64,000 nucleotides of DNA, taken from NCBI GenBank assembly GCA_002344975.1, contig DDUV01000057.1, forward strand, positions 1 through 64,000, in the 5' to 3' direction. The notes beneath the pieces were generated by a model. That model ran no database searches. It was not told the DNA's origin and was given only the letters and a program-made list of their open reading frames with translations. The DNA comes from Saprospiraceae bacterium UBA2329. GTDB taxonomy: Bacteria > Bacteroidota > Bacteroidia > Chitinophagales > Saprospiraceae. Below, piece after piece: positions 22,101-39,520 of this stretch; the stretch's first letter is position 1, and the number at the start of each line of letters is the position of its first letter. Both the position numbers and the translations under genes were made by a program.

Positions 22101-24663
22101 CTGCATCGGCGCCTATTCGGAAGAGTTGAACCCAATTGTGAACATCGCCGATTGCGGCAACGGTACCATTGTGCGCCGTTTCCGGGCCAGAGATGCATCG
22201 GGCAATACCTCTTCCAACACCTGCCAGCAGATCATTACCATTAATTTGGCACACAACTACACGATTCGCTTCCCCAAAGATGCTCAGGCAGAGTGCGGCT
22301 TGCCGGAAGTGGATACGCTTATTGTTCAAGCTGCGGGCTGTTCCAATATGGCCATCAGCGTTACCAATGAGCGGTTCACAGCCTCGGAGGGCGCTTGTTT
22401 CAAAATATTCAGAACGTACCGGGTCATCAACTGGTGCGAGTACAACGGAAGCGATGAACCGTTGATAGTCAACAGAGAAGAGGATTGCGATAACGTAGGA
22501 GGAGATGAAGATGTGTGGGTATTGCGTCGCCCAAATCAGACCTATATAGATCGCAACAACAACCACGCCGACAACATACCGGCGGCCAATACACGCGGCA
22601 CGGCCTGCGGTAGTCCAAGTAATCCGGCAGGGTACTGGCGAACCGTACAATCTAAAGGGTACTGGCAATACACGCAAGTCATCAAAGTGTTTGATACGAC
22701 TCGTCCGACAGCTACTTTCGCAGCGCCTGATACGGCCTGCACAGTGGGCACTGCCTGCACCGCTTTGGTCTCGGCCAATTTTACGGTCAATGAAGGCTGC
22801 TCGCCCAATGACGTTACCGTGCAAGTATTCGCAGATTTGTTCTCAGACGGCGTAAACGACAGCGAGATCACAGGAGCGGGTATTTCGGGCAGCTATCCGA
22901 GCTACTTAATTACGGGCACCTTCCCCATCGGCAGCCACCGTTTTGTGGTCAACCTCCGCGACGGGTGCGGCAATACCAACGCCATTACCATTCCTTTTGT
23001 CGTGATTGACTGCGTTGGCCCTGCGCCCGTTTGCGCTGCCGGCATGACGGCTGTGCTCATGCCCTTGCCGCCGAACACCGATGCCGACGGCGACGGCGAC
23101 TTCGACCGGGGGGCAGTTACTCTGCAAGCTGTTGATTTCGTCGGTAGTCCCATTCCCGCCGATTGCAGCGGCCCAGTGCGCGTGTCCATCAATAGAGCCG
23201 GTCAGATTCCATCGCCCAACCAAACTGCTTTGGTGTTGACCTGCGACAATCTGGGTACCAATATCATCGAAATTTATGCCTGGGACAGCGCCAACAACCC
23301 GCGCCGGGTGCAGCCCAACGGCACGCTGGGCGGAGCAAACTTTGGATTCTGCCAGACTTTCGTCATCGTGCAGGCCAATACCGGTGTCAACTGTGGCGGC
23401 TCTACGGCCATGGGCGCTATTGCAGGCGGTATTTTTAGTGAAAACGGCAACCCGGTTCAGTCGGTGGACGTGAACCTGAGCGGGTACATGACGCAAAGTA
23501 TTCAGACAGAGGCCGATGGCCAATATGAAGCAGAAGACCTGCCCAGCGGTGAATCATACACTGTGACGCCGGTGTGTGATCTCAATGCCATCAATGGGGT
23601 TTCTACTTTCGACGTGATTCTCATTACCCGCCATATTTTGGGTACGCAATTGCTCGACTCGCCGTACAAGCTCATCGCTGCCGATGTGAACAATTCCAAG
23701 TCTATTTCAACATTAGATATCATACAGTTGCGCCGCCTGATTCTGGGCCTCACCACCAGCTTCCAGGGCAATACGAGCTGGCGATTTGTGGACGCCGACT
23801 TTGTGTTCCCCAATGAGGCCAACCCCTGGCAAACGCCCTTCCCTGAACTCATTCAGGTGGGCAACCTGCAAGGCAGCCTCAATGGGCGCAACTTCATCGC
23901 CATCAAAGTGGGCGACGTGAACGGCAACGCCATCCTCAATGCCAATCAGGTGGAAGACCGCAGCGTGGCAGGTACTTTCACGCTGTACTCAGAAGCACTT
24001 GACATGGTACAAAATGAAGAACTGACCGTGCCCATCACGGCCCGCAACTGGCAAGGCATAGACGGTTTCCAAATGACGATTGAGTTTGATGCAGAAAAGC
24101 TGGAGTTCCTCGATGTAGTATATGGCGTCATCGGTGCAGAGCATGTAGGCACTGCTATGGTGGACCGCGGCATGATTACCGTGAGCTGGAACCGTCAGGG
24201 CAACAACGTGGCTAATGGCGCCGACCCCTCAGTGGAAGGCGAGGCATTGTTCTGGCTGTCGTTCAAACCCAAGACAGGCGGTAAGATAGAGCAGGCATTG
24301 GCTGTCAACTCCCGCTACGCCCGTGCCGAGGCTTATGATCCGCAAGGCGCGCTGTTGGATGTGGCGCTGCAATTTGAACGCGCACAGCAAAAAGAAGAGC
24401 GCTTCGAGTTGTACCAAAATCAGCCCAACCCGTTCAACAGCCAAACCATGATCGGTTTCAGGCTGCCCGAAGACGACTTCTTCACCCTGCGCATACACGA
24501 TGCAGGCGGTAAAGTCATCAAGGAACAACGCGGTTATTTCGAGGCTGGCTACAACCAAATGTGGCTACATGCCGCCGACCTCCCGGCTTCCGGTCTGGTC
24601 TTTTACACCCTGACTTCAGGCACCCATTCTGCCACGCGCAAAATGGTGATCATAAAGGAATAA
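19192..24663 (+). CDS. Giant (1823 aa) cell-surface adhesin-like protein: multiple HYR/Ig-like Cys-containing repeats, dockerin-like repeat, cohesin-like module, T9SS type-A CTD
   Basis: Recurrent …C.NVT.T..D..GN…C.Q.I.V.D..P.I.CP… units (HYR-like); a dockerin-like ADVNNSKSISTLDIIQLRRLILGL; a cohesin-like region (…MTIEFDAEKLEFLDVVYG…); C-terminus …NPFNSQTMIGFRLPEDDFFTLRIHDAGGKV…YTLTSGTHSATRKMVIIKE = Por_Secre_tail. Confidence 0.7.
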   Translation: MSEMNRGLFLHHPKQCCAMRHATIFTKASLNKLMLPALLASVVLLGSAGLKTNAFEAVWTFLTDPPIIYRGTVSGATPPCNCLNNATNLVNGQFQDTLTIASNPGEIWTITTANGLFSVSSPAPPMAPFPIGMGAQFAETAPGSGVYRLIVRHVDAVGFSLTVTNNLNESVSLSAACHYPNPQIVGLNSQYCITSLPVPLQGNAGAGVAGSGTFRVNGVVATEFDPSIYPPGSSQTITYTFDAGTGAVNNPNDPACSATITQTVNISNVPWPAGITFLNVPLNNQCYTVITPFMTLSDLNAYPCMDDFYVVVFDVPGNPIGDTIGSEWVGFTLRAVTYSYNGLFEVESFLTFEDEIDPNITCPPPATTGVITRNRQTISNTLSGADPTIALSDFSCFRGQTNPAMGNHRYDLHTFTVSAANKYIFDLTPQFGRGVGVLYQGAFNPAFPCMNVIDMGRDSMLFMFMSPDSMMRLTANLVPNQIYTLLTSSEQPGALGAYSWNIYTNFTGALNNLPITTIQDTFDLVCNDTDSLFNNPRSLSITGSPIAVDNCNNVTVTFTDTRQNNGNCGPQVITRTFTATDPSGNSRTCQQTITVRKPRIGDLKFPPLSTVIECSTNYQTTPTGNPHPSATGYPYIETAFGIYYINPVFCNLSATWQDEPRVLNDNNPNVYTFLRRWTVFNDCVPGEFTTYNQVIRVDDFSPPIISCPVGIDQNGDGTPDPPVFSTGDTECTAVVQVMPPVITDNCSNVTYMTVIISEVRVPILSPQGVILGYNTQLVPRDTIRPGQTPIVSGLPIGTHRFRYIATDARGNMSQVDCPFYVIDDVQPTAICDDNLIVAIGSNSFGRVFAQDVNEGSNDNCGIATIEVRRRYDRDPETCLNVTPYYSNWGPSVDLTCCDVGRMVIIELRVTDLSGNINVCVSELTVSDNTRPVCMAPPARTIACDSLPQGFNPADTLMLRNMFGAPIAVDNCIGAYSEELNPIVNIADCGNGTIVRRFRARDASGNTSSNTCQQIITINLAHNYTIRFPKDAQAECGLPEVDTLIVQAAGCSNMAISVTNERFTASEGACFKIFRTYRVINWCEYNGSDEPLIVNREEDCDNVGGDEDVWVLRRPNQTYIDRNNNHADNIPAANTRGTACGSPSNPAGYWRTVQSKGYWQYTQVIKVFDTTRPTATFAAPDTACTVGTACTALVSANFTVNEGCSPNDVTVQVFADLFSDGVNDSEITGAGISGSYPSYLITGTFPIGSHRFVVNLRDGCGNTNAITIPFVVIDCVGPAPVCAAGMTAVLMPLPPNTDADGDGDFDRGAVTLQAVDFVGSPIPADCSGPVRVSINRAGQIPSPNQTALVLTCDNLGTNIIEIYAWDSANNPRRVQPNGTLGGANFGFCQTFVIVQANTGVNCGGSTAMGAIAGGIFSENGNPVQSVDVNLSGYMTQSIQTEADGQYEAEDLPSGESYTVTPVCDLNAINGVSTFDVILITRHILGTQLLDSPYKLIAADVNNSKSISTLDIIQLRRLILGLTTSFQGNTSWRFVDADFVFPNEANPWQTPFPELIQVGNLQGSLNGRNFIAIKVGDVNGNAILNANQVEDRSVAGTFTLYSEALDMVQNEELTVPITARNWQGIDGFQMTIEFDAEKLEFLDVVYGVIGAEHVGTAMVDRGMITVSWNRQGNNVANGADPSVEGEALFWLSFKPKTGGKIEQALAVNSRYARAEAYDPQGALLDVALQFERAQQKEERFELYQNQPNPFNSQTMIGFRLPEDDFFTLRIHDAGGKVIKEQRGYFEAGYNQMWLHAADLPASGLVFYTLTSGTHSATRKMVIIKE

Positions 24664-24824
24664 CATGATGAGGGATTTGTTGGAATAATGATACCAACTT
24701 CAAAAGCGGGCGGCTCTCCGATGGGAGGGTCGCCCTTTTGGTTTTTCACGATATTTGTACCTTCAAATCAATTTCCAAACTATCTTTACCAATGATTCTT
24801 ATCCACTGTAAAGACCATCCAACA

Positions 24825-25898
24825 ATGATCACCATCTCCAAACTGTCTATATTCAGCTTTTTATACAAAACACTGCTTTACTGCTCATTGTGTAGCCTCG
24901 CCGGCTGCGCCGTGCTACCGAGGGGCGATGCCGCCGATGCTGTGCCGCCCGTTCCGCCCGACTATTCCAACCCGGCTTACTGGGCTGCCCTGCCCGATAA
25001 AGCCGACCCCGCCGACCGAACGCCCGCCGGCCTCTCCAACATGCAGGCAAGCGCCCCCGCCGATGTGTTTTTTCTGCATCCTACCACCTACACCGGCGAC
25101 CGCGGCCACAACCAATGGAATGGCCCGGTGAACGACGAGCGCCTGAACCGCAAAACCGACGAAAGTACTATTTTGTATCAGGCCAGCCTGTTCAACGGCG
25201 TGGGACGGGTCTTCGCTCCGCGCTACAGGCAGGCGCATTTGCACTCATATTATGCGCGCAATGCCGCCGAAAAAGCAGCCGCCGAAAAGGCATTTGAATT
25301 GGCCTGGCTCGACGTGAAAGCTGCATTTGAATACTATCTGGCCCACCATCATCAGGGGCGGCCTATCATCATCGCCTCGCACAGTCAGGGTACTACGCAT
25401 GCCAAACGTCTGATGCGCGAGTTCTTCGACGGCAAGCCCTTGCAAGAACGGCTCGTGGCGGCCTACCTCGTGGGCATTCCCGTAGAAAAAGATTATTTGA
25501 AGTCCATTCCGCCCTGCCAGACGCCCGACGATACCGGCTGTTATTGCACCTGGCGCAGCTTTCGCAAAGGGCATATTCCCAAATGGCACAAAGACGGCAG
25601 CCTCATCGCCGTTACCAACCCGCTCACTTGGACGACGGGCGAGGCGTACGCTCCTGCCGACCTCAACGAGGGCGGGGTTTTATACAATTTCGACAAGATT
25701 TTACCCAAGCTGGCAGATGCCCAAATCCACGACGGACTGCTGTGGGTAACCAAACCGCGCTTTCCGGGCAGCGTCTTCTTCACGAGGCCCAACTACCATG
25801 TAGCCGATTATAACTTCTACTACCTCAATGTGCGCAACAATGCCATGCGGCGCGTGGAGGCGTTTCGGCAGGCGGGACAGACAGGGGTGAGTAGGTGA
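24825..25898 (+). CDS. DUF3089-like alpha/beta-hydrolase-fold lipoprotein
   Basis: Lipoprotein signal (…LYCSLCSLAGC) and a nucleophile-elbow-like IIIASHSQGT. Stop codon TGA lies inside the GGGTGAGT repeat. Confidence 0.5.
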   Translation: MITISKLSIFSFLYKTLLYCSLCSLAGCAVLPRGDAADAVPPVPPDYSNPAYWAALPDKADPADRTPAGLSNMQASAPADVFFLHPTTYTGDRGHNQWNGPVNDERLNRKTDESTILYQASLFNGVGRVFAPRYRQAHLHSYYARNAAEKAAAEKAFELAWLDVKAAFEYYLAHHHQGRPIIIASHSQGTTHAKRLMREFFDGKPLQERLVAAYLVGIPVEKDYLKSIPPCQTPDDTGCYCTWRSFRKGHIPKWHKDGSLIAVTNPLTWTTGEAYAPADLNEGGVLYNFDKILPKLADAQIHDGLLWVTKPRFPGSVFFTRPNYHVADYNFYYLNVRNNAMRRVEAFRQAGQTGVSR

Positions 25899-25945
25899 GG
25901 GGTGAGTGGGTGAGGGGTGAGTGGTGAGTGGGTGAGTGGGTGAGG
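25884..25945 (+). repeat. GGGTGAGT octamer tandem repeat (about 7 units), locus A
   Basis: GGGGTGAGTAGGTGAGGGGTGAGTGGGTGAGGGGTGAGTGGTGAGTGGGTGAGTGGGTGAGG directly at the 3' end of CDS 24825-25898. The gene's stop codon TGA is part of the repeat. Confidence 0.9.
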
Positions 25946-26051
25946 AGCGAGATGAAAAAAGTGTCGGCTGTTTTCGTCCGGAGACTTATGTTGCTGAAAA
26001 ATTGCTGTTACGTTTCTAACTTGCCGCTTTTTACGGAAAACAAAAAACAAC

Positions 26052-28219
<2,168 letters not shown>

Positions 28220-28223
<4 letters not shown>

Positions 28224-29293
28224 GTGAATTCATCGGGCGGCAGCGGCTCTATCAGCCCCAACTGTCGGGCGAAGAGCGCTGCCTCCCGGTAGTTTTTAAT
28301 GATGTGCATGACGATTTCTCCCTGTGCCGATTCGATGAGACGGCTGATGCGAAGGGCGCGCCCCGGAATTTCCACATCGCGGATAAAAATGGCCAGAATG
28401 CGCCCCGGAAAACTGCGCGCTATTTCCATGTAAATATCAGTATCCCGTTCGCCGCTGTCGCCGATGAGTACGAAGGGCAGGTCGGGGTATGCCGTGATGA
28501 TGCGGCGGATGTGATCGGCCTTGTGAGTAGAGGGTTTGCCCCAGAGGCGACGGCCCAGAAAGCCAAAATCCCGCATGAACACAGGGCCTTTGGGCAGCTC
28601 ATGCAGTTGAAAAAAATCGCAAAGCAGGTCGTAGAGGTTCCAGGGGCCGTTGGAAACGTAAAAAACCGGATTGTCACAAGTGCCGTCGGGGCCTTTTTGC
28701 AGGGCTTGGTAAAAATCGGCTACCGACTGAAAAGCCTGGCGGCCAAAGGCGTTTTTCACCAAAGTGAGATATACCGCTTTCAGCTTGAGCAGGGAGGTGA
28801 TGCCTGATTTGATGATGGTGTCGTCCACATCGCTGACGATGCCGAAGCGGGCATTGCAGGGCGCCAGCACCTCTCCCGAACATTGGTAATCAAAAATTTC
28901 GCCCAGCGTGCCCAGCAGATGCAGCGAAAAATCGGTCCAGGCATCGTTGCCCGGCTCCAAAGGGTATTGCAGCGGGCCGTCGTAATGAAAGTAGCCATAG
29001 TTGTCGCTCACCAAATGCAGTTTGTTTTTGCCTATGGTGATGTGAATGAGCGCATTGGGAATGGTGAGGCTGCCGAATCGTTTGTAATTGTTGCCCAGAT
29101 TGCGCCACAGCGAATCGCCGGGGCTGACCTGAATGCGGCGGTCGCGCAGTACCCGGCCATGCAGATATGCCCGCCCCTGCGAAACAAAGCCGCGAAAAGG
29201 GACCACCAGAGCAGGTCGTCCGGAGCTGTATCGCCGGTAAGACGGGTCTTCGGGCAATATCCAGCGGAAGAGTTTTGTAATCCAGGTAGCCAT
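28220..29293 (-). CDS. App1-like (DUF2183) HAD-type phosphatase domain protein
   Basis: VSDVDDTIIKS (DxDxT) motif; about 357 aa. Convergent 4-bp overlap with the S46 peptidase gene. Confidence 0.45.
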
Positions 29294-29295
29294 GC

Positions 29296-30468
29296 GTGGG
29301 TAAAGTTATGCAATTCATGGAGATATACAGCATCGGGCAAAATATGTACTTTTGCGGCGTCATGGAATACAAAGACAATTTATTGGGCGTAGTGGGCACG
29401 CTGTACCGGTGGAGAAAGCCCCTCATAGCACTGTGTTTGCTGGCCGGTTTGGGCACAGCGGGCATTTCGTTGATGCTGCCGGATTACTACCAGGCCGGTA
29501 CTACATTTTTTGCAGCCAGCCCCGATCAGAGCAAGCCGGAATTGGTGTTCAACCGCAGCATGTCTATGCGGATGGAATATTACGGCAACTCCGGTGATAT
29601 AGACCGCCTGCTCACCGTGGCCGAGTCAAGCGAATTGGTCGGCTTTTTGGTGGATTCTTTCGACCTTTTCGATCACTACGAGATAGACCCCAACCAGCAC
29701 AAAGCTCCGTTTCTGATGCAGGAGCGTTTCTTCAGTTTATACACCGTCAAAAAGACAAAACGGGACGCCATCGAGTTGACGGTAGAAGACCAGGACCCCC
29801 AATTGGCCGCCGGCATAGCCAATGCCGCCCGCAATAAAATAGAAGAAATCGTACAGCGCCTCATTCGCGAAAGCCAGCAAAAGACCATCAAGGCTTATGA
29901 GGATAATATTGCCGCCAAGGAGGCTTTTCTACTTCAACTTGGCGATTCCTTAGCGGTTTTGCGCACCCAATACGGCACTTACAACGTGGTAGCCCAAACC
30001 GAAACGCTCACCGAGCAGTTGTCGGAAGCACTGGCCCTGTTCACCCGCGACAGCGTTCGGCTTCTGGTGCTGCGGGCCAACGCTCAGGTGCCCCGCGATA
30101 CCATTTATATGCTGGACGCCAAAGTAGCCGGTTTGAGGCAGGAGGTCAAAGTGTTGAAAGGCGAAATCAGTCGGCTCAACAGCGGCATTTCTACCATTTA
30201 CAACTTAGAAAAACAGTTTGCCGAAGCCAATCAGATATTGGGCGAAGACCGCGAACGCCTCAAGCAATGGAGGGCAGCCAATACCTCTACTGCGCCTGCT
30301 GTATTGCTGGTGGAGGCTGCTTCGCCGCCGGTCATCAAATCGAGGCCGAAGCGCAGTATCCTGGTGCTTTCGGCCACCTTCGTAGTATTTTTGTTTGGTG
30401 TGATCGGCATCCTGCTGTTCGATGCGTACAAAAGCATCAACTGGCGGGAGGTGCTGGGTTCAAAATAA
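29296..30468 (+). CDS. Wzz/GumC-like polysaccharide chain-length-determinant topology protein (start uncertain, possibly 29362)
   Basis: N-terminal TM (LIALCLLAGLGTAGISLML), a long central coiled coil, and a C-terminal TM (ILVLSATFVVFLFGVIGILLF). Confidence 0.4.
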   Translation: MGKVMQFMEIYSIGQNMYFCGVMEYKDNLLGVVGTLYRWRKPLIALCLLAGLGTAGISLMLPDYYQAGTTFFAASPDQSKPELVFNRSMSMRMEYYGNSGDIDRLLTVAESSELVGFLVDSFDLFDHYEIDPNQHKAPFLMQERFFSLYTVKKTKRDAIELTVEDQDPQLAAGIANAARNKIEEIVQRLIRESQQKTIKAYEDNIAAKEAFLLQLGDSLAVLRTQYGTYNVVAQTETLTEQLSEALALFTRDSVRLLVLRANAQVPRDTIYMLDAKVAGLRQEVKVLKGEISRLNSGISTIYNLEKQFAEANQILGEDRERLKQWRAANTSTAPAVLLVEAASPPVIKSRPKRSILVLSATFVVFLFGVIGILLFDAYKSINWREVLGSK

Positions 30469-30474
30469 GGTGAC

Positions 30475-30870
30475 ATGAGTTTAAAAAAGAAAAGACCGGT
30501 GATGGCCAATATGTTGGCTATGAAATGTCCTCGTTGTCAGGAGGGCGACCTGTTTGATACGCCGACGTTTTCCTTCAAAAAGCCGTTCGATATGCCGGAA
30601 AAATGCCCGCATTGCGAGCAGGACTATATGCCGGAGCCAGGGTTTTACTACGGAGCCATGTTCATTTCCTATATTTTTATGGGATGGTTCTGCCTGCTTT
30701 TTGTGATGTTTTTTCACTGGGTATTGGGCTGGGGCATGGCCGCGTCGTTTGGGCTGCTCATCGCGGTGTGCATTGTTTTATTTGTGTATATTTTTCGCCT
30801 CGCACGCTCCATCTGGATCAATATTGTAGTGAAATATGATCCTTCCAAAGCTAAACACAAGCACGCATGA
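30475..30870 (+). CDS. DUF983-like small membrane protein with zinc-ribbon
   Basis: CPRCQEG…CPHCEQ zinc-ribbon motif followed by two TM helices. Confidence 0.45.
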   Translation: MSLKKKRPVMANMLAMKCPRCQEGDLFDTPTFSFKKPFDMPEKCPHCEQDYMPEPGFYYGAMFISYIFMGWFCLLFVMFFHWVLGWGMAASFGLLIAVCIVLFVYIFRLARSIWINIVVKYDPSKAKHKHA

Positions 30871-31520
30871 TGACCGAAGAGCAACAGATCAGAGAGTACC
30901 TGCGCAAGTATTATTCCAACATTGCCGAACTCGGGCTACAGGAAGAGATAGCGCATATCGGCAAGGTGATGGAGTTCAAAGCCGGCGAAATCATCATGGA
31001 CTTCGGGGCTTATGTCAAGCTCATTCCTTTAGTGGTGGAAGGCAGCATCAAGGTGTCGCGGGAAGGTGACGACGGCGGCGAGATTTTTCTGTACTACCTG
31101 CAGCCGGGCGAGTCGTGTACCATGTCTTTCACCTGCTGCATGATGAACAAGCGCAGCGAAATCCGCACGCAGGCAGAGGAAGATACGGTCGTCATTGCCA
31201 TTCCCATTCGATACATGGACGACTGGATGTCGAGGTACCAAAGCTGGAAAAATTTTGTGATGATGTCTTACGATCATCGCATGAAAGAACTGATCCGAAC
31301 CATAGACGAAATTGCGTTCAAAAAAATGGACGAGCGCCTGCTCACCTATTTGCAGAAAAAAGCGCAGGTGACCGGTTCCAAAACGCTGAATGCCACCCAT
31401 CAGGAAATTGCTTATGACCTCAACGCCTCGCGGGAAGCGGTGTCTCGGCTGCTCAAACAGTTGGAACACGACGGCTATGTGAAACTGGGGCGCAACAAAA
31501 TCACTTTGGCCAAAGGGTAG
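30867..31520 (+). CDS. Crp/Fnr family transcriptional regulator
   Basis: cNMP-binding beta-barrel plus C-terminal HTH (…THQEIAYDLNASREAVSRLLKQLEHDGYV…). 4-bp overlap with the upstream gene. Confidence 0.8.
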   Translation: MMTEEQQIREYLRKYYSNIAELGLQEEIAHIGKVMEFKAGEIIMDFGAYVKLIPLVVEGSIKVSREGDDGGEIFLYYLQPGESCTMSFTCCMMNKRSEIRTQAEEDTVVIAIPIRYMDDWMSRYQSWKNFVMMSYDHRMKELIRTIDEIAFKKMDERLLTYLQKKAQVTGSKTLNATHQEIAYDLNASREAVSRLLKQLEHDGYVKLGRNKITLAKG

Positions 31521-31522
31521 TT

Positions 31523-32203
31523 TTATTCCCTGTCAAGTAAGCCAAAGGCAAAAAACGTCAGCATGTTTTTCACCTCCGTCAGATCGTCTGCGGGCGTGCG
31601 CACTTCCGTGAGCGAGGGCAGGTGCTGTGCTGCATAAATGTGAAAATTGGCCATTTCCAGCAAGGTGCTGGCCAATGCTTTCGGGTACTCAAAGGCGGGG
31701 TTGACTTCCCCTATAATGGCTGCCAGGTCGGCGGCCAATGCTTTATACACGGCAAAGAATCCCTTTTTGTTCTCCTCGTCCACCGCTTTGGTGTGGTAGG
31801 TTTTGGGGCCTTCCGTCAGTACAATTCTGAATAAGATATGCTCATTGATATACTCCACAGCCGGATCGGCTTTGCTGCTGTCCACAATGGCCGACAGGGC
31901 GAGGCGCAGTTTTTGTTCGGGGGTTTCGATGTTGGTGGTGGCCAGCGTGATCTGATACCGCACGCGTTCCCAGTACCAGCATAGCAAATACACCAAAAAT
32001 TTGTGCTTGTTTTCAAAATAGCGATAAATGGAAGCCTCGGTGGATTCGATTCGGTGTGCTAATTTTTTGAAGGTAAATTCCTCCAACCCCAATTCCTCTA
32101 TCAGGCAAATACCGTGTTGCAGGATGTTGCGCCCCAGCTTGCTGTCCTGCGGGTCCCGTAGATACAATTGCTCGTTGACCTGAATTTGAATTTTAAAGCC
32201 CAT
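31523..32203 (-). CDS. TetR/AcrR family transcriptional regulator
   Basis: N-terminal HTH (RNILQHGICLIEELGLEEFTFKKLAHRIESTEASIYRYFENKHKFL). Confidence 0.8.
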   Translation of the reverse strand: MGFKIQIQVNEQLYLRDPQDSKLGRNILQHGICLIEELGLEEFTFKKLAHRIESTEASIYRYFENKHKFLVYLLCWYWERVRYQITLATTNIETPEQKLRLALSAIVDSSKADPAVEYINEHILFRIVLTEGPKTYHTKAVDEENKKGFFAVYKALAADLAAIIGEVNPAFEYPKALASTLLEMANFHIYAAQHLPSLTEVRTPADDLTEVKNMLTFFAFGLLDRE

Positions 32204-32274
32204 TTTTCGCCAATTTTAAAAAGCAAATGTAGCCACTTTACCTTTCGGTAGCATTACTTTAGCAAATACTTTTT

Positions 32275-32357
32275 CCACTCACCCTTCATCCCTCACCCAC
32301 TCACCCATTCACCCATTCACCCACTACCCACTCACCCACTCACCCACTCACCCATTC
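32275..32357 (-). repeat. GGGTGAGT-type tandem repeat (about 10 units incl. GGGTGAAT variants), locus B, oriented with minus-strand gene
   Basis: Plus strand reads CACTCACCC…; the reverse complement is GAATGGGTGAGTGGGTGAGTGGGTGAGTGGGTAGTGGGTGAATGGGTGAATGGGTGAGTGGGTGAGGGATGAAGGGTGAGTG. It supplies the TGA stop of CDS 32348-33448. Confidence 0.9.
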
Positions 32358-33448
32358 CTCTTACCCGCTTCAATACCATGCTTGGCCGGGTCTTTCAGCC
32401 TGTCCCGAAGGGTAGAAAGCGCCACCACATCGGCTTGAGTCAGTACCTTGAATTTTGCATTCAGGATAGCGTCCAGTTCCGCGCCGGCCTCGGCTGCTGT
32501 ATGCCAGAAGCTCGTTTCGGCCTGAGTCAGATCAGATACGATGCGGGTTTTCATGGTTTGGAGCGGCTGTTCAAAGAGTGCGTCAGGACTGCTTTGCGCA
32601 TTGATTTTGCTCAGCAAATCTTTACAAACGCCGCTGCCGAGCATACAATGCCCGCCGTAATCCCAAGTCTGAATCTGCCAGGCCGGGAAGAAATACTCGA
32701 TGCTGTCGTCGGGGAAGGCGGCAATTTGGAGGTCCATAAAAATGTCATCCTGTACGCCTTTGGTTTTTTTGGAAAGAGCCAGCCACTGCCGATAATCCAA
32801 AAAGAGGTAGTACGCGGTCCCCTCGGCCACCAATTGCGGCTGGAAGCCCGTGAACAGCTCCGCCAGCCAGAACATGTCGGGCATATCCTCGGCAGAAGTA
32901 GGCGGAATGCGCCGTTGCAGCACCTCGTTGATGGTGTCGCGCAGGGCCGTACTTTGTTCCAGCAGGCGGCTCAGGTCGGCTTCGTTGCGGGTAGCGGCCC
33001 AGTTGCGGCGGTGTTGGTTGATGCTCTCCACGAGCGGCTGTCCGAGCATGGCTGTGGCGCGTTTTTGCAGGAGGGCGCGGGTGGCGGGCGAGTTTTGGGA
33101 GGCGTCAAAAATGAGTCCTCCGCCATACACCCAGCCCGTTTGGCCGGAGGAGGTTTTCACCTTGATCCAGGGTTCGTCAAAAGTGATACCGCGCAAAGTG
33201 ACCCGCGTGGTGAAATCGCTCACTTCGCCCAGGTCTTCCAGTTTGGCGCCTTTGGGCAGGGTGGCCACGATGACGCCTTTTTCGCCGGGCGTTTCGCGCA
33301 TGCGGAGGTCGGACACGGCCGTTTCAAACTGCACCGGCCCTTTGTCGGTCATGGTTTCGGTAGAGGCGGCCTGTTCTGCGCCGGCATTTTTGGGGCGACA
33401 GCCGAACAGCAGGGCGGCAGGTATCAGCAATAGAAGTAAGGTACGCAT
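32348..33448 (-). CDS. Hypothetical lipoprotein with SH3b-like domain
   Basis: MRTLLLLLIPAALLFGC lipobox; an SH3-like stretch (MRETPGEKGVIVATLPKGAKLEDLGEV). Confidence 0.5.
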   Translation of the reverse strand: MRTLLLLLIPAALLFGCRPKNAGAEQAASTETMTDKGPVQFETAVSDLRMRETPGEKGVIVATLPKGAKLEDLGEVSDFTTRVTLRGITFDEPWIKVKTSSGQTGWVYGGGLIFDASQNSPATRALLQKRATAMLGQPLVESINQHRRNWAATRNEADLSRLLEQSTALRDTINEVLQRRIPPTSAEDMPDMFWLAELFTGFQPQLVAEGTAYYLFLDYRQWLALSKKTKGVQDDIFMDLQIAAFPDDSIEYFFPAWQIQTWDYGGHCMLGSGVCKDLLSKINAQSSPDALFEQPLQTMKTRIVSDLTQAETSFWHTAAEAGAELDAILNAKFKVLTQADVVALSTLRDRLKDPAKHGIEAGKRNG

Positions 33449-33610
33449 GATGTGATTGTTTATTGAAATTGGTTGGAATGTTCCGGGCGACAGGCAAAGC
33501 GGAATAGTAAGAAGTCAAAAAAGTATTCGATACTTTCCTGAACACTCTAAGTTAGTAATCAGCACCGCGCCACACGCGCGGCAAGCATCAGCAATCAGCA
33601 CATCTACACA

Positions 33611-34129
33611 TTAGAAATCCTTTTTGCCCATCAGTATTTTGAAATCAATTTTGCCCTGCATCAGCTTCAGGTGCTCCACTACGGCTACGGCCCGGATAAG
33701 GCGGGTTTCGGCAGTTTTCGGCGAGCCGACGTAATAGAGCATAGTGCGCAACTTGCCGGGCGTGAGGGCGTGCAGACAGCGATGGCCCTCCTCGTCTTGT
33801 CGCAGCAATTCCTCCAACTCTTCGGGCATGGGCAGGCCGTATTCGCTGTCGTCTTTCCACAGGGTGACCTCTAACGGTGAGCCGATTTTGATGCGGAGCT
33901 GATCGCGCAGTTTTTTGTTCACATTGATAAAAAACGCCCCCTCGCCTTTGGGCATCAGCGCGCACTGAAAAGGCTTGCTGCCGTTGAGGATGCACACCAC
34001 GCGGCGCTTGTTGCCCTCCACAAAGACCTGCCCGATGGCGGCCGGCACTACAAAGTGATGCCCCCACAACGCCGAGTCGAAGTCCTCGAGCAGGGAAGTG
34101 AATTGAACGGCAGATTCGGGTGCTTGCAT
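33611..34129 (-). CDS. YdeI/OmpD-associated family protein (DUF1905 + DUF1801-like)
   Basis: …HHFVVPAAIGQ…CILNGSKPFQCALMPKGEGAFFINVNKKLR…; 172 aa. Confidence 0.5.
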   Translation of the reverse strand: MQAPESAVQFTSLLEDFDSALWGHHFVVPAAIGQVFVEGNKRRVVCILNGSKPFQCALMPKGEGAFFINVNKKLRDQLRIKIGSPLEVTLWKDDSEYGLPMPEELEELLRQDEEGHRCLHALTPGKLRTMLYYVGSPKTAETRLIRAVAVVEHLKLMQGKIDFKILMGKKDF

Positions 34130-34276
34130 GTGGTTGAGAACAAGTTGAACTTCAAAGTTCGGATTCTTTGTGGTATCTTTGTTCCTAATAATGAAAAAAA
34201 CTCAATTTGTTTTATGAAAACATACCCAAAGACGGTTGCGGAATTTTTTTCTCAAACGCATATCTAATTATCTGCT

Positions 34277-35017
34277 ATGCATAAGACCCGCAATAGTGCG
34301 ATCCTGATAGGATTATTTTTATCAAGGTTTGATGAAGATGGCCTTAACGCACTTGGCTTTAGCGGATTTTGGGAAGCATTCAATACGTTAGGATATGCCA
34401 TAGGAGTGAAGCCTTCCTCTATAAAAAATTACAGAGACGAGTTTGATCCGTATTATCCAAATACAAGAAAAGGCTGGCACAAAAGAAGCCTTAGAGACTA
34501 TTGCAAGGTCGTCATGGAGGAATATGCGAGTTATGATTTACACTCATTTACTGAGATTATCAAGGAGTTATTGATTAATAACTATGAAGTTGAACGAATA
34601 GAGGAAATGATTATTGATAAGAAAAGTACAAGCTCAATTGCGCAAAGACTTATAACAGGCCAATCCGCGGAAGCCTATTTCAAGGAGAATTACTTGACAG
34701 TGCCACAGTTCCAGAATTACGCCTTTAAAGACACTACTTTGCTGGGATGTGGCTTCGATTTCCTCCTTACACGTCAAACTGATTTTTTTTGTATTGAAGT
34801 GAAAGGGCTTCACAGCAAATCAGGTACGATATCGCTGACGGAGAAGGAGTATCAAATGGCTGAAAAGCTGAGCGAGCATTTTTGCTTGTATGTTGTGTCT
34901 AATTTTTGCGAGCAACCTATTGCCAATGTAATAATCAATCCCTTAGAATCTGGGTTGGATTTTGTAAAAGATGAGAGGCTTATTACTGTTGTGTCATTTC
35001 AAACCTACATAAGATGA
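34277..35017 (+). CDS. Predicted PD-(D/E)xK nuclease, DUF3883 (NO VEIN C-terminal)-like, gene 1 of low-GC island
   Basis: C-terminal half …GCGFDFLLTRQTDFFCIEVKGLHSKSGTISLTEKEYQMAEKLSEHFCLYVVSN… gives D…(E)VK plus the downstream 'LT.NE…A' pattern, characteristic of DUF3883 restriction-endonuclease-like folds. AT-rich codon usage unlike the flanking DNA. Confidence 0.5.
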   Translation: MHKTRNSAILIGLFLSRFDEDGLNALGFSGFWEAFNTLGYAIGVKPSSIKNYRDEFDPYYPNTRKGWHKRSLRDYCKVVMEEYASYDLHSFTEIIKELLINNYEVERIEEMIIDKKSTSSIAQRLITGQSAEAYFKENYLTVPQFQNYAFKDTTLLGCGFDFLLTRQTDFFCIEVKGLHSKSGTISLTEKEYQMAEKLSEHFCLYVVSNFCEQPIANVIINPLESGLDFVKDERLITVVSFQTYIR

Positions 35018-35775
35018 ATGTAGATAATCAGTCCAACTATACATTGGCCTTTGAGGATGGCTGGGATGCGCTTCAGCCTCAAATCGTCAATGATCAGGAT
35101 TTTTTAAAAGCTGTTTTATTGATGCTTGATTTGATGAAACAAGATAAAAATATTGACCCCAGCAGATATTGTGATGAAAACGGCAATTTGAAAAGTTACG
35201 TCGAACTGTGTAAGTATAAAAAACTTCAGTTGGTCTATAATCCTGAATATCCAACATGGAAGATCATTCATACGCTACTCTCCCAAGCAATAAATGAAGG
35301 TAAAGCAGGGGCCGTTGCATATCATTTGGTTGGAGCAACTTTGCAATTGAGATTCCCGGACATTGAAATCTCAAATGAATCAGCGAATACCGCAGATCAG
35401 CCAACAGGAAGATCGGGCGATTTCACTATTGGCGACACTGTTTTTCATGTCACGGTTCATCCAATGACCTCTGTTTTTGATAAGTGCAGGGAGAATATCA
35501 AGGATGGGCTTAAAGCATTTTTGCTGGTTCCAGATTCCAGTTTGACGGGTTCTCGGATGTGGGCATTAAAAGATGGCGTGGAGCTTTTTGCGGTAGAATC
35601 TTTAGAGTCGTTCATTTCTCAAAACATTGAGGAAATTAGTGCATTTGATCCTAAATACCGGAAAAACAGCCTTTTCAACTTGATCTATTTGTACAATCAA
35701 AGGGTTGACCAAGCTGAAACAGATAAGTCGCTCATGATCGAATTACCCTCCAATTTGAAGGTGTCAAATGGCTGA
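35014..35775 (+). CDS. Hypothetical protein, gene 2 of low-GC island (no recognisable family)
   Basis: 253-aa ORF. Its start overlaps gene 1 by 4 nt (ATGA) and its end overlaps gene 3 by 8 nt, indicating translational coupling. No motif I can assign. Confidence 0.5.
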   Translation: MNVDNQSNYTLAFEDGWDALQPQIVNDQDFLKAVLLMLDLMKQDKNIDPSRYCDENGNLKSYVELCKYKKLQLVYNPEYPTWKIIHTLLSQAINEGKAGAVAYHLVGATLQLRFPDIEISNESANTADQPTGRSGDFTIGDTVFHVTVHPMTSVFDKCRENIKDGLKAFLLVPDSSLTGSRMWALKDGVELFAVESLESFISQNIEEISAFDPKYRKNSLFNLIYLYNQRVDQAETDKSLMIELPSNLKVSNG

Positions 35776-36175
35776 TGTTTTCACTCCCGAAAAACGTAGC
35801 GAGGTTATGCGAAGAGTAAAGTCTTCCCGCAACGCATCCACGGAACTGAAACTGATACAGTTTTTCAAAAATCATAAAATTAAAGGATGGAGGAGAAGTT
35901 ATCCTCTCGTTGGGAAGCCTGATTTTGTCTTTCCTAAACAAAGAATTGTCATATTCGCAGATGGTTGCTTTTGGCATGGCCACGATTGCCGAAATACTAA
36001 ACCCGCTCAGAATCGCACATATTGGGAATCCAAGCGAGACAGGAACATTGCCAGAGATATCTTGGTAACCAATGCTTTACAAAAAAAAGGATGGACTGTA
36101 ATTCGTATATGGGAATGTGAATTGAAAAAAGGTAGCTACGAATCTCGTTTGCTCAGCGCGTTACAATCGGATTAG
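35768..36175 (+). CDS. vsr: Very-short-patch-repair (Vsr) DNA mismatch endonuclease
   Basis: MADVFTPEKRSEVMRRVKSSRN…GKPDFVFPKQRIVIFADGCFWHGHDC…TVIRIWECELKK reproduces the hallmark Vsr motifs of E. coli Vsr (MADV…, GRPDFV, HGCFWHHH, W..K…N..RD, WRVLIVWEC). Confidence 0.9.
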   Translation: MADVFTPEKRSEVMRRVKSSRNASTELKLIQFFKNHKIKGWRRSYPLVGKPDFVFPKQRIVIFADGCFWHGHDCRNTKPAQNRTYWESKRDRNIARDILVTNALQKKGWTVIRIWECELKKGSYESRLLSALQSD

Positions 36176-36219
36176 AATTGATTTGATCTCCCCCAAAACA
36201 TCGTACCTTTGCCATCCTT

Positions 36220-37623
36220 ATGGCAAAAAAAACTTTCATAGCGGAGCAGGTGCGCATCACCGGCATAGCAGAAAAAGGGCGGGGCGTAGGCCGAGACGCT
36301 GAGGGACGCGTATTTTTTGTACCCGATACCGTGCCCGGCGATGTAGTGAATGTGCTGACCCTGCGCAAGAAAAAGGGATTTTTTGAAGGCGTGGTGCATG
36401 CCGTGCTGGAAAGCTCGCCGGAGCGTGTGCAGCCCTTTTGCCGGCATTTCGACCTCTGCGGCGGATGCAGTTGGCAGCACTTAGACTATGCCGCCCAATT
36501 GCACCACAAACAACTGATGGTAGAAAACGCCCTGTTGCGCATCGGTAAATTGGAAGTAGAAGATTTTCAGCCCATCACAGGCGCTGATCCCAATGTATAT
36601 TACCGAAATAAATTAGAGTTTTCCTTCTCCAACCGCCGCTGGCTCACCAAAGAGGAAGTTGACTCTGAGGTGACCAACCTGGAGGATGTACTGGGATTTC
36701 ACAAATCGGGAGCCTTCGACAAAGCCATTGATATTGAACACTGCTGGCTGCAACCCGATCCTTCCAACGCCATCCGTCTGGCCGCCAAACGTATCGCTGT
36801 AGCGCAGGGTCTTGCCTTCTGGGATGCCCGCGACAACAAGGGTTTTGTGCGCAATCTCATGCTGCGCGTGGCCACTACTGGGCAGGTCATGGCGCTGATG
36901 AGTTTTTCCGAAAATCGCAAAAAAGCCATCTCCGCTTTTTTGGATGCATTGCAGGAGGCCTGCCCGCAGATCACCTCGCTGTACTATTGCATCAATCACA
37001 AGGTCAATGATTTTATGTTCGACCTCGACATGATCCTGTATCGCGGCGAGCCTGCTATCGAGGAGCAGTTGGGCCATGTACGGTGCCGCATCGGGCCGAA
37101 ATCTTTTTTCCAGACCAACACCAGGCAGGCTAAGGTACTGTTCGATACGGCTGCCGAGTTTGCCGGGCTGCAAGGCCACGAAAACGTGTATGATCTCTAT
37201 ACCGGAATCGGCAGTATAGCGTTGTATCTGGCGGGGCGTTGCCGACAGGTGACGGGCATTGAGGAAATAGCCGCCGCCATTGACGATGCGCGCGACAACG
37301 CGGCCCTCAACGGCATTGATAATTGCACTTTTTACGCCGGAGACGTGAAGGACATGCTCACGCCGGAGTTTGCTGAAAAGCATGGCAAACCCGATGTGCT
37401 CATCACCGATCCGCCGCGGGCGGGCATGCACCCCAAAGTGGTGGACATCCTGCTGGAATTGGCCGCGCCGCGCATCGTGTATGTGAGTTGCAATGCCGCC
37501 ACCCAGGCCCGCGATCTGCAATTGCTCTCGGCAAAATACCGCGTGCTCAAAGTTCGCCCGGTGGACATGTTTCCGCATACGCACCATGTGGAGAGCGTGG
37601 CACTGCTGGAGCTTCAGGGGTGA
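36220..37623 (+). CDS. rlmD: 23S rRNA (uracil-C5)-methyltransferase RlmD/RumA family (TRAM + [4Fe-4S] + class I MTase)
   Basis: TRAM-like N-terminus, the Cys cluster CRHFDLCGGCSWQHLDY, and a C-terminal MTase with DPPRAGM. Stop TGA is embedded in the GGGTGAGT repeat. Confidence 0.85.
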   Translation: MAKKTFIAEQVRITGIAEKGRGVGRDAEGRVFFVPDTVPGDVVNVLTLRKKKGFFEGVVHAVLESSPERVQPFCRHFDLCGGCSWQHLDYAAQLHHKQLMVENALLRIGKLEVEDFQPITGADPNVYYRNKLEFSFSNRRWLTKEEVDSEVTNLEDVLGFHKSGAFDKAIDIEHCWLQPDPSNAIRLAAKRIAVAQGLAFWDARDNKGFVRNLMLRVATTGQVMALMSFSENRKKAISAFLDALQEACPQITSLYYCINHKVNDFMFDLDMILYRGEPAIEEQLGHVRCRIGPKSFFQTNTRQAKVLFDTAAEFAGLQGHENVYDLYTGIGSIALYLAGRCRQVTGIEEIAAAIDDARDNAALNGIDNCTFYAGDVKDMLTPEFAEKHGKPDVLITDPPRAGMHPKVVDILLELAAPRIVYVSCNAATQARDLQLLSAKYRVLKVRPVDMFPHTHHVESVALLELQG

Positions 37624-37677
37624 GTGGGTGAGGGGTGAGTGGGTGAAGGGTGAGTATGTGAGTGGTGAGCAACCCGA
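37617..37677 (+). repeat. GGGTGAGT octamer tandem repeat, locus C
   Basis: CAGGGGTGAGTGGGTGAGGGGTGAGTGGGTGAAGGGTGAGTATGTGAGTGGTGAGC immediately at the rlmD 3' end. Confidence 0.9.
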
Positions 37678-37743
37678 ATCCGCCTTCGCCAAGGCTTCGG
37701 CGGATGAAACCCGAAACTTTGAACTCGAAAACATAAAAAATAT

Positions 37744-38175
37744 ATGATAGAAAAACTTTGGCAGGCGCTTTACGATGCCGGCGGCGTTATCAAAGACCAG
37801 GCCGCCAATATGGGGCAGGGCGCCCGCGAAAAAAGTCAGGAAGTCATTGAGGAATGGTTGGCGGTATTCCCCCGCCTCGAAGCCTACGGATTTCGCGTGA
37901 CGCACTTCTCGCTGGGCGTTTCCATCAGTCCGTCATTGGAGGTGGAAATGCGCGCTGCACACGAAACCTTTCCTCCGGAGCGCATAGACCAATACATAGA
38001 AACCACGCGCAGCAGCACGGCCCTGCAATTGGTTTTTAATACCGTCAAGTCCACTTATGCCTTGTACCGCAAGGCCAAACTGCCTCTGCGCGGGGAGTTG
38101 ATTGTGCGTTTGCGCATACGAATCTCCCCCGAAATACGCGTTATCATCGGCGCGCCGGCGGGCGTGGAGGAGTAG
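37744..38175 (+). CDS. Hypothetical protein
   Basis: 143-aa ORF in a coding-dense context; no motif recognised. Confidence 0.4.
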   Translation: MIEKLWQALYDAGGVIKDQAANMGQGAREKSQEVIEEWLAVFPRLEAYGFRVTHFSLGVSISPSLEVEMRAAHETFPPERIDQYIETTRSSTALQLVFNTVKSTYALYRKAKLPLRGELIVRLRIRISPEIRVIIGAPAGVEE

Positions 38176-38191
38176 ATAAAAAATAACATCC

Positions 38192-39007
38192 ATGACCAAA
38201 CTCAATTTGCTTGTCCTGGCTTTGCTTTGCTGCGGTTTCATCACAAGCATGGCCCAAAACGACAAACACATCACGGTCAGCGAAGAACCTACCGACGATG
38301 GCGTGATCCTCTACATCGAGAACATTGGAGTGTGTCCCTACACAGTGGAGTTTGATGCCGAACTCACCAATGTTCGCGCCGATAAAGCCCTGCCGATGAG
38401 CATAGTAGTACCCGCCGGAATGCGCATGGAATTGCTGCGCTTGGAACCAAAACCCAATGCTCGCTGGGGGTATCGGTACAACTTCAACTACTACATGGGC
38501 GATGCGTTCAATGCCCGTCACGATGGGCTGTACGTATATCAGTTGCCCTATGAAAAGGGTGCTTCTTTCGTCGTGGGGCAGGGCTACAACGGCGATTTTA
38601 GCCATCGCGGCGAAAAAGCGCTTGACTTTGTGATGCCCGTTGGAACGCCTGTCCATGCGGCGCGCGAGGGTATGGTCATCAAAGTGAGATCGGATTCCAA
38701 CCGGGGCTGCGGGTCCGAATCCTGTCGCGACGACGGCAACTATCTGCTCATTCTTCACAGCGACGGCAGCATAGCCAACTACGCGCACTTCAAGCATCGC
38801 GGCGTGGCGGTGAAGGAGGGCGAGGTGGTAGCTCAGGGCCAATTGATCGGTTACAGTGGCAATACCGGCTGGAGTTCCGGGCCGCATCTGCACTTTCAGG
38901 TGTATGTGCCGGGCTTGGGCAATAAGCGCAACAGCGTGGCTACCTATTTTCGCACGGCGTCATCGGAGTCGGTGCTGCTGAGGGAAAAACAGAGTTACAA
39001 ATGGTAG
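38192..39007 (+). CDS. M23 family metallopeptidase (secreted)
   Basis: Signal peptide; HxxxD-like …GEKALDFVMPVGTPVHAAREG… and a C-terminal HLHFQV motif. Confidence 0.8.
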   Translation: MTKLNLLVLALLCCGFITSMAQNDKHITVSEEPTDDGVILYIENIGVCPYTVEFDAELTNVRADKALPMSIVVPAGMRMELLRLEPKPNARWGYRYNFNYYMGDAFNARHDGLYVYQLPYEKGASFVVGQGYNGDFSHRGEKALDFVMPVGTPVHAAREGMVIKVRSDSNRGCGSESCRDDGNYLLILHSDGSIANYAHFKHRGVAVKEGEVVAQGQLIGYSGNTGWSSGPHLHFQVYVPGLGNKRNSVATYFRTASSESVLLREKQSYKW

Positions 39008-39520
39008 TCAATCGTATAGAAACGGCTCGTCGCCCTCTGCCATTCGGCGAACATTTTCAAGCACCTGATTCATATATTTTTTATAAAACACTTTTGCGAA
39101 AAGCCATTGAAGGGGTATAAAAACAAAGCCTTTAGCGTGAATGGTGTAATCGTAATTGATTTGTATTTTATTGGGCGAAAGCTCCGTCGTTGTCCATTCA
39201 AAAGTGAACTGCCAAATATCCAGCATCCACGACTTGAAATTGCCCACTTCTGCTTTCCAATATTTGTTTTCAATGCGCTCAATAATCTTGTCGGTTGATA
39301 CCTCGCCGCCTTTAAAAGTTAATGATTTGTCGGCATAAACATTTTTTATAGAACCGACTTTGCCCCAACCCTCATCATTGGTTGTTTTGGTGACTTTCGG
39401 CATCAGTCCGAACCCTGTATGCACTTTGGTAACATCGCAAAGTATGGGCGCTTTAAAAGCTCGTTCAAGCGAGCAATGGTAAATGGCTGTGGTGTGTATT
39501 TTAAAATCCATTTTATTCAT
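39008..39520 (-). CDS. Hypothetical protein, SRPBCC (START/Bet v1)-like fold suspected; AT-richer than its neighbours
   Basis: 170-aa ORF. Its stop abuts the M23 gene stop (convergent, 0-bp gap). Alternating beta/alpha pattern; no catalytic motif. Confidence 0.4.
   Translation of the reverse strand: MNKMDFKIHTTAIYHCSLERAFKAPILCDVTKVHTGFGLMPKVTKTTNDEGWGKVGSIKNVYADKSLTFKGGEVSTDKIIERIENKYWKAEVGNFKSWMLDIWQFTFEWTTTELSPNKIQINYDYTIHAKGFVFIPLQWLFAKVFYKKYMNQVLENVRRMAEGDEPFLYD

Follow-up and report, generated by a model that had tools for sequence, protein, structure and literature searches.

Three arrays of the G-rich octanucleotide GGGTGAGT lie at the 3′ ends of genes in a 64-kb stretch of bacterial DNA (positions 1 to 64,000 of contig DDUV01000057.1, hereafter the window), and each supplies the TGA stop codon of the gene that it follows. 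The arrays probably belong to a G-rich family of long simple sequence repeats (SSRs) driven by replication slippage, in which the abutment on stop codons, and their donation, comes from a unit that offers TGA in all frames together with purifying selection, possibly with seeding on TGA(G). A strict G-quadruplex (G4) motif was taken as four G3+ tracts with N1–7 loops, and with this definition the three arrays are:

Array 1, 25884–25945, plus strand: about 8 units of GGGTGAGT, GGGTGAG, GGTGAGT and AGGTGAG, with 8- and 15-nt periodicity; fails the strict G4 motif.
Array 2, 32275–32357, minus strand: about 10 units, among them GGGTGAGT, GGGTGAAT, GGGTAGT, GGGTGAGG and GGGATGAA; two strict G4 motifs.
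Array 3, 37617–37669, plus strand: about 7 units; one strict G4 motif.

Tandem Repeats Finder placed array 1 at 25885–25944 (period 8, 7.9 copies, consensus GGGTGAGT), array 2 at 32275–32354 (period 8, 10.4 copies) and array 3 at 37618–37669 (period 8, 6.9 copies). The plus-strand consensus of array 2 is the C-rich CCACTCAC, so that its minus strand is the G-rich one. A 15-nt period (GGGTGAGT plus GGGTGAG) scores higher than period 8 in arrays 1 and 3, and the units of array 3 run GGGTGAGT GGGTGAG GGGTGAGT GGGTGAA GGGTGAGT ATGTGAGT GGTGAG, decaying toward the 3′ end. For the exact octamer the window has 12 matches, where dinucleotide-preserving shuffles predict 1.34; for the two-unit 15-mer, with up to 2 mismatches allowed, it also has 12, where shuffles predict 0.10. 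Every match to either falls inside the three arrays. Both analyses bear out an earlier reading of this DNA (the original prediction), which had proposed octamer arrays at these loci, although the end it gave for array 3 (37677) is better placed at 37669. All three lie within 12 kb, and no further array was found in the other ~69 kb examined (the rest of the window and ~17 kb walked past both ends), a density of about 3 arrays per 81 kb.

The genes upstream of the arrays, and the stop codons that they take from them, are:

24738–25898, plus strand: DUF3089-family gene upstream of array 1, 386 aa (Pfam DUF3089, E = 9.8e-61).
25896–25898, plus strand: TGA stop of the DUF3089 gene, from the second unit of array 1.
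32348–33448, minus strand: SH3_3-domain gene upstream of array 2, 366 aa.
32348–32350, minus strand: TGA stop of the SH3 gene, from the first unit of array 2.
36220–37623, plus strand: rlmD (23S rRNA U1939 methyltransferase) upstream of array 3, 467 aa.
37621–37623, plus strand: TGA stop of rlmD, from the first unit of array 3.

The three genes end in ..ACA GGG GTG AGT AGG TGA (DUF3089), ..AGG AAT GGG TGA (SH3) and ..CTT CAG GGG TGA (rlmD). Each stop is thus a TGA of the array, as had been predicted, but only the SH3 gene and rlmD use the first unit, where the prediction had put all of them. RlmD homologues end in ..VALLEL[KR] plus 0–6 variable residues and the focal RlmD ends in VALLELQG*, indicating that array 3 starts at the very last codon of a conserved protein. 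In each case it is the G-rich strand that serves as sense strand for the upstream gene, in agreement with the original prediction of a constant orientation. Since array 2 is inverted together with its genes, orientation tracks the gene and not the chromosome strand. Polar DNA motifs such as Chi or the FtsK-orienting polar sequences (KOPS), pairing of GGUGA with the anti-Shine–Dalgarno sequence UCACC, and sites for RNA-binding proteins were considered as conceivable roles; the flipping of array 2 along with its genes within 12 kb speaks against a purely replication-oriented motif. All three arrays lie between co-directional genes, with 107, 72 and 67 nt left to the next start codon; the genes associated with them are housekeeping or functionally unrelated.

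On the G strand of the repeat a TGA recurs every 8 nt and, as 8 mod 3 is 2, no frame stays open beyond 24 nt. The C strand (ACTCACCC) is free of stops in every frame and also of ATG, GTG and TTG. It follows that an array can touch or replace a stop codon only in the G-sense orientation, at a cost of few residues; with a C-sense array at its end, a gene would read through the entire array. Gain or loss of whole units spares the 5′ junction and the first in-frame TGA, and the protein is therefore unchanged by slippage. Stop donation is an automatic property of the unit, and not evidence of a dedicated stop-supplying device. The original prediction had the repeat readable as GEWVR: this is so for 15-nt-periodic stretches, where one forward frame stays open, but pure 8-nt stretches have all three frames closed. 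Two antisense open reading frames (ORFs) that cross the arrays (25820–26263 and 36613–37905, both minus strand) were rejected as shadow ORFs arising from the stop-free C strand; the gene chooser did not pick them.

The favoured explanation can be set out as follows. The arrays would be copies of a G-rich, C-free octanucleotide long SSR that resembles the short tandemly repeated repetitive (STRR) sequences. They keep fixed loci while unit number and unit variants turn over quickly, a pattern to be expected of replication slippage and then point-mutation decay. The strand asymmetry would admit stop-flush arrays only in the G-sense orientation, after which slippage would never alter the protein. 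Stop donation and tight abutment would be by-products of the unit sequence and of purifying selection, perhaps seeded on a native TGA(G). Most likely, transcription of the upstream gene runs on into the array, which would form the first part of that gene's 3′ untranslated region (UTR). An effect there is plausible, through G4 formation by the RNA or the non-template DNA, pausing of RNA polymerase or protection from 3′ exonucleases, but any such effect appears, from the comparisons that follow, too poorly conserved to be required at each locus.

Metagenome contigs from sludge and bioreactors encode the exact RlmD protein, and a contig of the metagenome-assembled genome (MAG) GCA_002343745.1 matches the right end of the window identically. 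Among named organisms, Lewinellaceae, Saprospiraceae and Phaeodactylibacter have the closest RlmD homologues (~65% identity), which points to a Saprospirales bacterium (Bacteroidota) from activated sludge as the host. Five contigs with identical RlmD (L001–L005) have identical arrays; they therefore represent one population and carry no copy-number information. Strain L137 has an RlmD 97% identical to that of the window and 94.5% nucleotide identity over 9.4 kb. Its arrays 2 and 3 occupy the same sites, with flanks identical for tens of bases on each side. Array 2 has 7 units in L137 against 10 in the window, and GGGTGAGG takes the place of the window's GGGTGAGT or GGGTGAAT; array 3 has undergone internal rearrangement and has lost the strict G4 motif. 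The proteins are of equal length in the two strains despite the differing arrays (RlmD 467 aa, SH3 366 aa). This between-strain check of copy number upholds the original prediction that the arrays are expandable, while the constant protein lengths contradict its suggestion that slippage would vary the C-terminus. By this comparison the arrays are slippage-prone, hypervariable microsatellites at stable loci.

The 3′ flank of rlmD was also compared in four relatives with 77–84% amino-acid identity (L134, L135, L136 and L138), and none of the four has a GGGTGAGT array after rlmD. There is no spacer in L136, where the next gene starts 4 nt past a TAA stop, and in L135 rlmD overlaps a different downstream gene. 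The rlmD of L134 has its own TGA, followed by a heptamer array of (ACGCCCA/ACGAACA)n (L134:11402–11480). That of L138 has a TAA stop donated by a TAA-bearing heptamer array (ACGGCTT AAGGCTA AGGGCAT ..), which is followed by (CAACTGA)n (L138:1860–1969), one base off the published TAACTGA repeat; RlmD identity for L138 and L134 is 83–84%. The GGGTGAGT array thus lacks conservation beyond close strains, and unrelated 7-nt arrays have colonised the same rlmD spacer in sister lineages. Tandem Repeats Finder detected many other intergenic families of 7–8 nt at Saprospirales loci (among them GTTCCGG, GGAATCA, GGCGGTA, GATTTCG, GTAGTCA, GGTTGGT, AACCTTC and TGAGTGTG), and GGGTGAGT is, on these sequences, one of many intergenic SSR families of this size in Saprospirales. 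Dense packing of repeats is seen in a region of the focal lineage, L129:4045–4845 (= L127), where six different arrays of period 7, 14 or 15, including AGGGGTG, GGAATCA, GGCGGTA and CAGCCAG, together with a ~46-nt repeat, fill the spacers flanking a 147-aa ORF.

A set of eight distinct arrays, including those of the window, was assembled for the focal lineage from ~150 kb of lineage genomes. All eight lie in intergenic DNA, reaching at most into the last codons of a gene. Of the seven with a called upstream gene, four contain the upstream stop, one is within 20 nt and two are ~100–160 nt off; the next gene is co-directional in six cases and convergent in one. Five of the eight share a 5′ junction in which (T)CA directly precedes GGGGTGAGT (window 25880–25892 and 37614–37625; array starts of L124, L128, L130 and L132), and this junction looks like a remnant of the unit in which TGAG has changed to YCAG. 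Three of the eight share a 3′ junction, GAGCAACCCGAA(A/T)CC, that leads into a heptamer SSR (CCCGAAA/CCTTGAA/CCCGGAA). When metagenomes were scanned for the 8+7+7 pattern typical of the lineage, 10 loci emerged, five of them from sludge assemblies; the focal sample is accordingly small.

A cross-phylum scan for three consecutive units, with one genome per species, gave at least 116 loci, and the positional counts across phyla given here and below are among the matches listed from it. Octamer arrays occur in at least 10 phyla, often at several loci per genome: Planctomycetota, Cyanobacteria, Verrucomicrobiota, Armatimonadota, Gemmatimonadota, Chloroflexota, Acidobacteriota, Actinomycetota, Proteobacteria and Bacteroidota. 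The Bacteroidota carriers include Ca. Ribeiella danica, Haliscomenobacter, Flavilitoribacter nigricans and other Saprospiraceae. Sphaerotilus mobilis DSM 10617 (L063) is a further carrier, and a cultivable one. By G-strand orientation, the intergenic arrays divide into 25 (+,+), 17 (+,−), 18 (−,−) and 4 (−,+). Convergent spacers outnumber divergent ones by 17 to 4 (p = 0.007), and the co-directional spacers show 25 G-sense against 18 C-sense arrays, which is not significant (p = 0.36). For 37 arrays, the end of a co-oriented upstream ORF falls from −22 to +10 nt relative to the start of the array. The adjoining stop is TGA in 32 of these, compared to 52% of all called genes at the same loci (p = 1e-5), and it keeps the register of the unit, at −6, −14 or −22 (10, 6 and 3 cases), or stands in a partial first unit (..NNN TGA GT GGGTGAGT).

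About 25 short arrays fall within long ORFs of the C strand, which has no stops. Examples are arrays of 4–5 units deep within ORFs of 790–1390 aa (L037, L045, L052, L064, L090 and L120), mostly in high-GC phyla; read on that strand these would encode THPLTHSP-like peptides, the ORFs being candidates. Arrays near the starts of C-sense genes were treated as an artefact of the ORF caller, the C strand having neither stops nor starts, yet this tendency may be real because Rehm et al. report the same with curated annotation. Short-read contigs often end inside arrays (L005 from Logan, and L012, L032, L038, L055, L059, L079 and L109). Repeats break assemblies, and arrays are thus probably under-counted in MAGs.

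The closest described systems are the G-rich heptamer SSRs GGGAATC of Xanthomonas and GGGGA(C/T)T of Nostoc PCC 7120, which form G4 in vitro (Rehm et al. 2015, PLoS One, PMC4692102). These repeats are intergenic, mostly between aligned ORFs and under-represented between divergent ORFs; on the coding strand they lie within 50 bp of the stop codon or overlap it, and of their two neighbouring ORFs the one on the 5′ side is always the nearer (PMC4692102). Inverted pairs exist, and length and sequence differ between Xcc and Xac at conserved loci (PMC4692102). No function was identified and no tie to the function of neighbouring genes was seen, but in Xanthomonas transcripts start or stop at G4-capable repeats more than at control repeats, whichever strand is transcribed (PMC4692102). 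The window arrays are likewise intergenic head-to-tail units with a run of at least three G at many loci, placed at or over co-oriented stops and scarce between divergent ORFs, and their unit number and sequence vary at conserved loci (window against L137). The stop is inside the array in all three window arrays and in one other array of the focal lineage. In contrast to the 7-nt unit of those repeats, the unit here is the 8-nt GGGTGAGN mixed with 7-nt variants, making it a member of the class and not of that sequence family. Unlike GGGAATC, which lacks a stop, GGGTGAGN carries TGA and can supply a stop in any frame. The hosts also differ, being Saprospirales and many other phyla, and the G4 of the window arrays is an in silico prediction that not every array fits.

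TAACTGA heptamer direct repeats, along with other heptamer arrays, are known from Beggiatoaceae, Cyanobacteria and Bacteroidetes (MacGregor 2015, Front Microbiol, PMC4679880). Their forward strand has stops in all frames and their reverse strand is open; they overlap gene ends only slightly, show whole-unit indels between strains and are patchily distributed among phyla (PMC4679880). In Ca. Maribeggiatoa they lie mostly a few nt upstream of start codons, suggesting a translational role (PMC4679880). GGGTGAGT is similar in having all-frame stops on its G strand and an open C strand (with one G-strand frame open in the 15-nt stretches), and in being an intergenic repeat of the 7-nt class in Bacteroidetes that is mixed with other heptamer arrays in the same spacers. 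It differs from the TAACTGA repeats, which are A/T-rich and incapable of G4, and the window arrays abut stops and end 67–107 nt before the next start.

The STRR sequences of cyanobacteria resemble the window arrays as short intergenic tandem units, but are heptamers of other sequence. Mazel and colleagues, in 1990, reportedly described such heptamers, for example CCCCA(A/G)T, in heterocystous cyanobacteria as dispersed and intergenic, with one strand rich in G runs. STRR variability is used for strain fingerprinting (PMC5088731). Repetitive extragenic palindromic (REP) sequences, bacterial interspersed mosaic elements (BIME) and terminators are also extragenic repeats after stops, and the inverted-pair hairpins of other phyla recall them; the window arrays, unlike these, are made of direct repeats and lack a palindrome, a U-tract and a significant hairpin. 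Two consecutive units of the GGGTGAGT repeat were printed in no paper found, and ACTCACCC alone matched only primers and guide RNAs. The original prediction, that no described family has this unit, is thus correct for the unit but not for the class, to which PMC4692102 and PMC4679880 already speak. The arrays share every class-defining feature tested; what sets them apart is the length and sequence of the unit, the stop codon that it carries and the range of hosts.

Only with a 12-nt loop does array 1 fit a G4 motif, and array 3 of L137 fails even a relaxed motif. Folding with ViennaRNA, with G4 energies included, gave −1.3, −14.4 and −14.9 kcal/mol for arrays 1, 2 and 3. The predicted G4 capability accordingly holds, as a motif, for arrays 2 and 3 but not for array 1. 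Watson–Crick pairing of the arrays with the pyrimidine-rich spacers downstream was tried and rejected: the energies reach −45/−43 kcal/mol, but z is only −2.0, −1.8 and −0.6 against shuffles. A canonical intrinsic terminator is present at 24708–24735 (12-bp stem with 9 GC pairs and a T-rich tail), after an 1823-aa gene and just upstream of the DUF3089 gene, showing that the organism does use hairpin terminators. The -7 promoter box of Bacteroidetes has the consensus TAnnTTTG. A perfect box of this kind, TACATTTG, ends 28 nt before the ATG of the TetR-family gene downstream of array 2 and is the sole one found by manual search among the three spacers; such a box also lies 3′ of the L128 array. 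A scan for sigma-70 promoters, not fitted to those of Bacteroidetes, found none in the three spacers. Rfam 15 gave no covariance-model match at E ≤ 1 on either strand of 24500–39500, and a plasmid BLAST search with the array 1 region, in which the low-complexity filter was active on the repeat, gave no match.

Several observations weigh against passive slippage as the full explanation. Much of this evidence would fit a functional 3′-end element, in which the G-rich RNA (GGGUGAGU)n, or the non-template strand, forms G4s or R-loops that end or pause transcription or block 3′-to-5′ exonucleases; the arrays would then define and stabilise the end of the upstream mRNA where a hairpin terminator is lacking. 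In the focal lineage an upstream gene was called for seven arrays, and all seven have the G-sense orientation towards it (two-sided p = 0.016); this includes three stop-distant arrays, 9–164 nt away, for which a neutral model predicts no orientation. In other phyla all eight inverted array pairs have the G arm first. Where such pairs lie between convergent genes, each gene has its stop in or next to its own G arm (L126 at 293–379 and 3946–4040, L125, L058, L087, L096, L101 and L118), and the L126 example would form a long hairpin of 33 bp at −79 kcal/mol. A consensus scan found no intrinsic terminator (GC-rich hairpin plus U-tract) in the three array spacers, though the organism has one at 24708–24735, which leaves room for a 3′-end function. 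The strict G4 motifs of arrays 2 and 3, at about −14 kcal/mol each, are the only ones in the window. Arrays sit between the stop and the likely promoter of the next gene, where the TAnnTTTG box marks it (array 2 and L128), and their rarity between divergent genes and the Xanthomonas transcript ends (PMC4692102) point the same way. A further caveat concerns the ORF chooser applied to loci outside the window, which is crude, yet reproduces the genes called in the window. Set against a 3′-end element are the lack of a strict G4 motif in array 1 and in array 3 of L137, the rapid turnover that leaves no GGGTGAGT array at the same site in relatives of 77–84% amino-acid identity, and the strand-independence of the Xanthomonas effect, for which no regulatory role was found (PMC4692102). 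Of the 43 arrays that separate co-directional genes across phyla, 18 are C-sense, and as the split is not significant the strict orientation of the focal lineage is not universal. A 3′-end element is a serious candidate, but on balance an unlikely one.

Slippage alone also does not account for the recurrence of the octamer in at least 10 phyla, at many loci per genome, combined with the shared 5′ junction. Active, sequence-specific spread would, whether by a mobile element, a templated repeat-adding enzyme or microhomology-targeted insertion at TGA stops. The recurrent junctions on both sides, the in-register TGA of 32 of the 37 adjoining stops and the clustering of the window arrays within 12 kb, with none in the other ~69 kb, are consistent with it. 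The flanks of the eight focal-lineage arrays have no terminal inverted repeats, palindrome or target-site duplication, however, and no transposase or reverse-transcriptase genes were seen near the arrays, so that the mobile element of the original prediction finds no support. The shared 3′ junction is itself another heptamer SSR, strains differ by whole units as in slippage, and only 2 matches were found in 2.9 million viral contigs. Active spread is on this evidence highly unlikely. A bolder combined claim is that GGGTGAGN arrays are a polar, strand-specific 3′-end element of at least 10 phyla, seeded on or targeted to TGA with the G strand 5′-first, acting as G4 or R-loop end or protection signals or written by a repeat-adding activity, and not passive products of slippage; we consider it distinctly doubtful.

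A role of the opposite strand is suggested by its composition. Rho prefers C-rich, G-poor, unstructured RNA, and the C strand is 62% C, has no G and leaves the array unpaired in predicted antisense folds. The RNA (ACUCACCC)n might therefore serve as a Rho loading (rut) site that ends antisense or converging transcription, in keeping with the 17 convergent against 4 divergent spacers. All three window arrays and six of seven in the focal lineage lie between co-directional genes, though, where no converging transcript is expected, and this role is extremely improbable. Contingency loci, in which slippage would change the C-terminus or flanking expression (phase variation), would be compatible with a unit length that is not a multiple of 3, an overlapped stop and a unit number that differs by strain. 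Unlike phase-variable contingency SSRs, however, the arrays lie past the first in-frame stop, and unit number leaves the reading frame unaltered; whole-unit changes spare the 5′ junction and its TGA, as the 467-aa RlmD and 366-aa SH3 proteins of both strains attest. The associated genes are not of a kind that suggests switching, being housekeeping or unrelated in function, and the arrays end well before the next start, with any -7 box downstream of the array and none within or across it. Phase variation is barely credible here.

The features downstream of the arrays are:

26052–28223, plus strand: S46 peptidase gene downstream of array 1, its start codon 107 nt past the array.
31523–32203, minus strand: TetR-family gene downstream of array 2, its start 72 nt past the array.
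37678–37705, plus strand: hairpin ATCCGCC(N14)GGCGGAT directly 3′ of array 3, without a U-tract and kept in strain L137.
37744–38175, plus strand: hypothetical-protein gene downstream of array 3, 143 aa, no Pfam match.

The hairpin at 37678–37705 splits the motif AACCCGAA..ACCCGAAAC. Between arrays 2 and 3, the stretch 34277–36175 has a GC content at third codon positions (GC3) of ~0.40 compared to ~0.65–0.70 in adjacent genes. It holds NOV_C, DUF4928 and a 135-aa ORF, and was probably acquired horizontally; the NOV_C gene varies in length by strain, with 246 aa in the window and 203 aa in L005 and L137. A 153-nt tandem repeat at 48893–49476 (3.8 copies, 87% matches) lies in an ORF-dense, high-GC region and probably encodes repeated domains of a very large surface protein. 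Genes of PKD/CHU_C type are found near this repeat region in L002.

On present evidence the arrays are an incremental addition, with no new mechanism. They add an octamer unit, Saprospirales hosts and carriers in many other phyla to the known class of stop-crowding, G-rich SSRs of 7–9 nt. Because the unit carries a stop codon, it makes a polarity rule easy to see, namely that the 5′ end of the G strand faces the gene end; the repeats of Xanthomonas and Nostoc have the same polarity. Flavilitoribacter nigricans DSM 23189 (L093) is a cultivable carrier, and offers a system in which a role of the arrays in forming or protecting transcript ends could be addressed.

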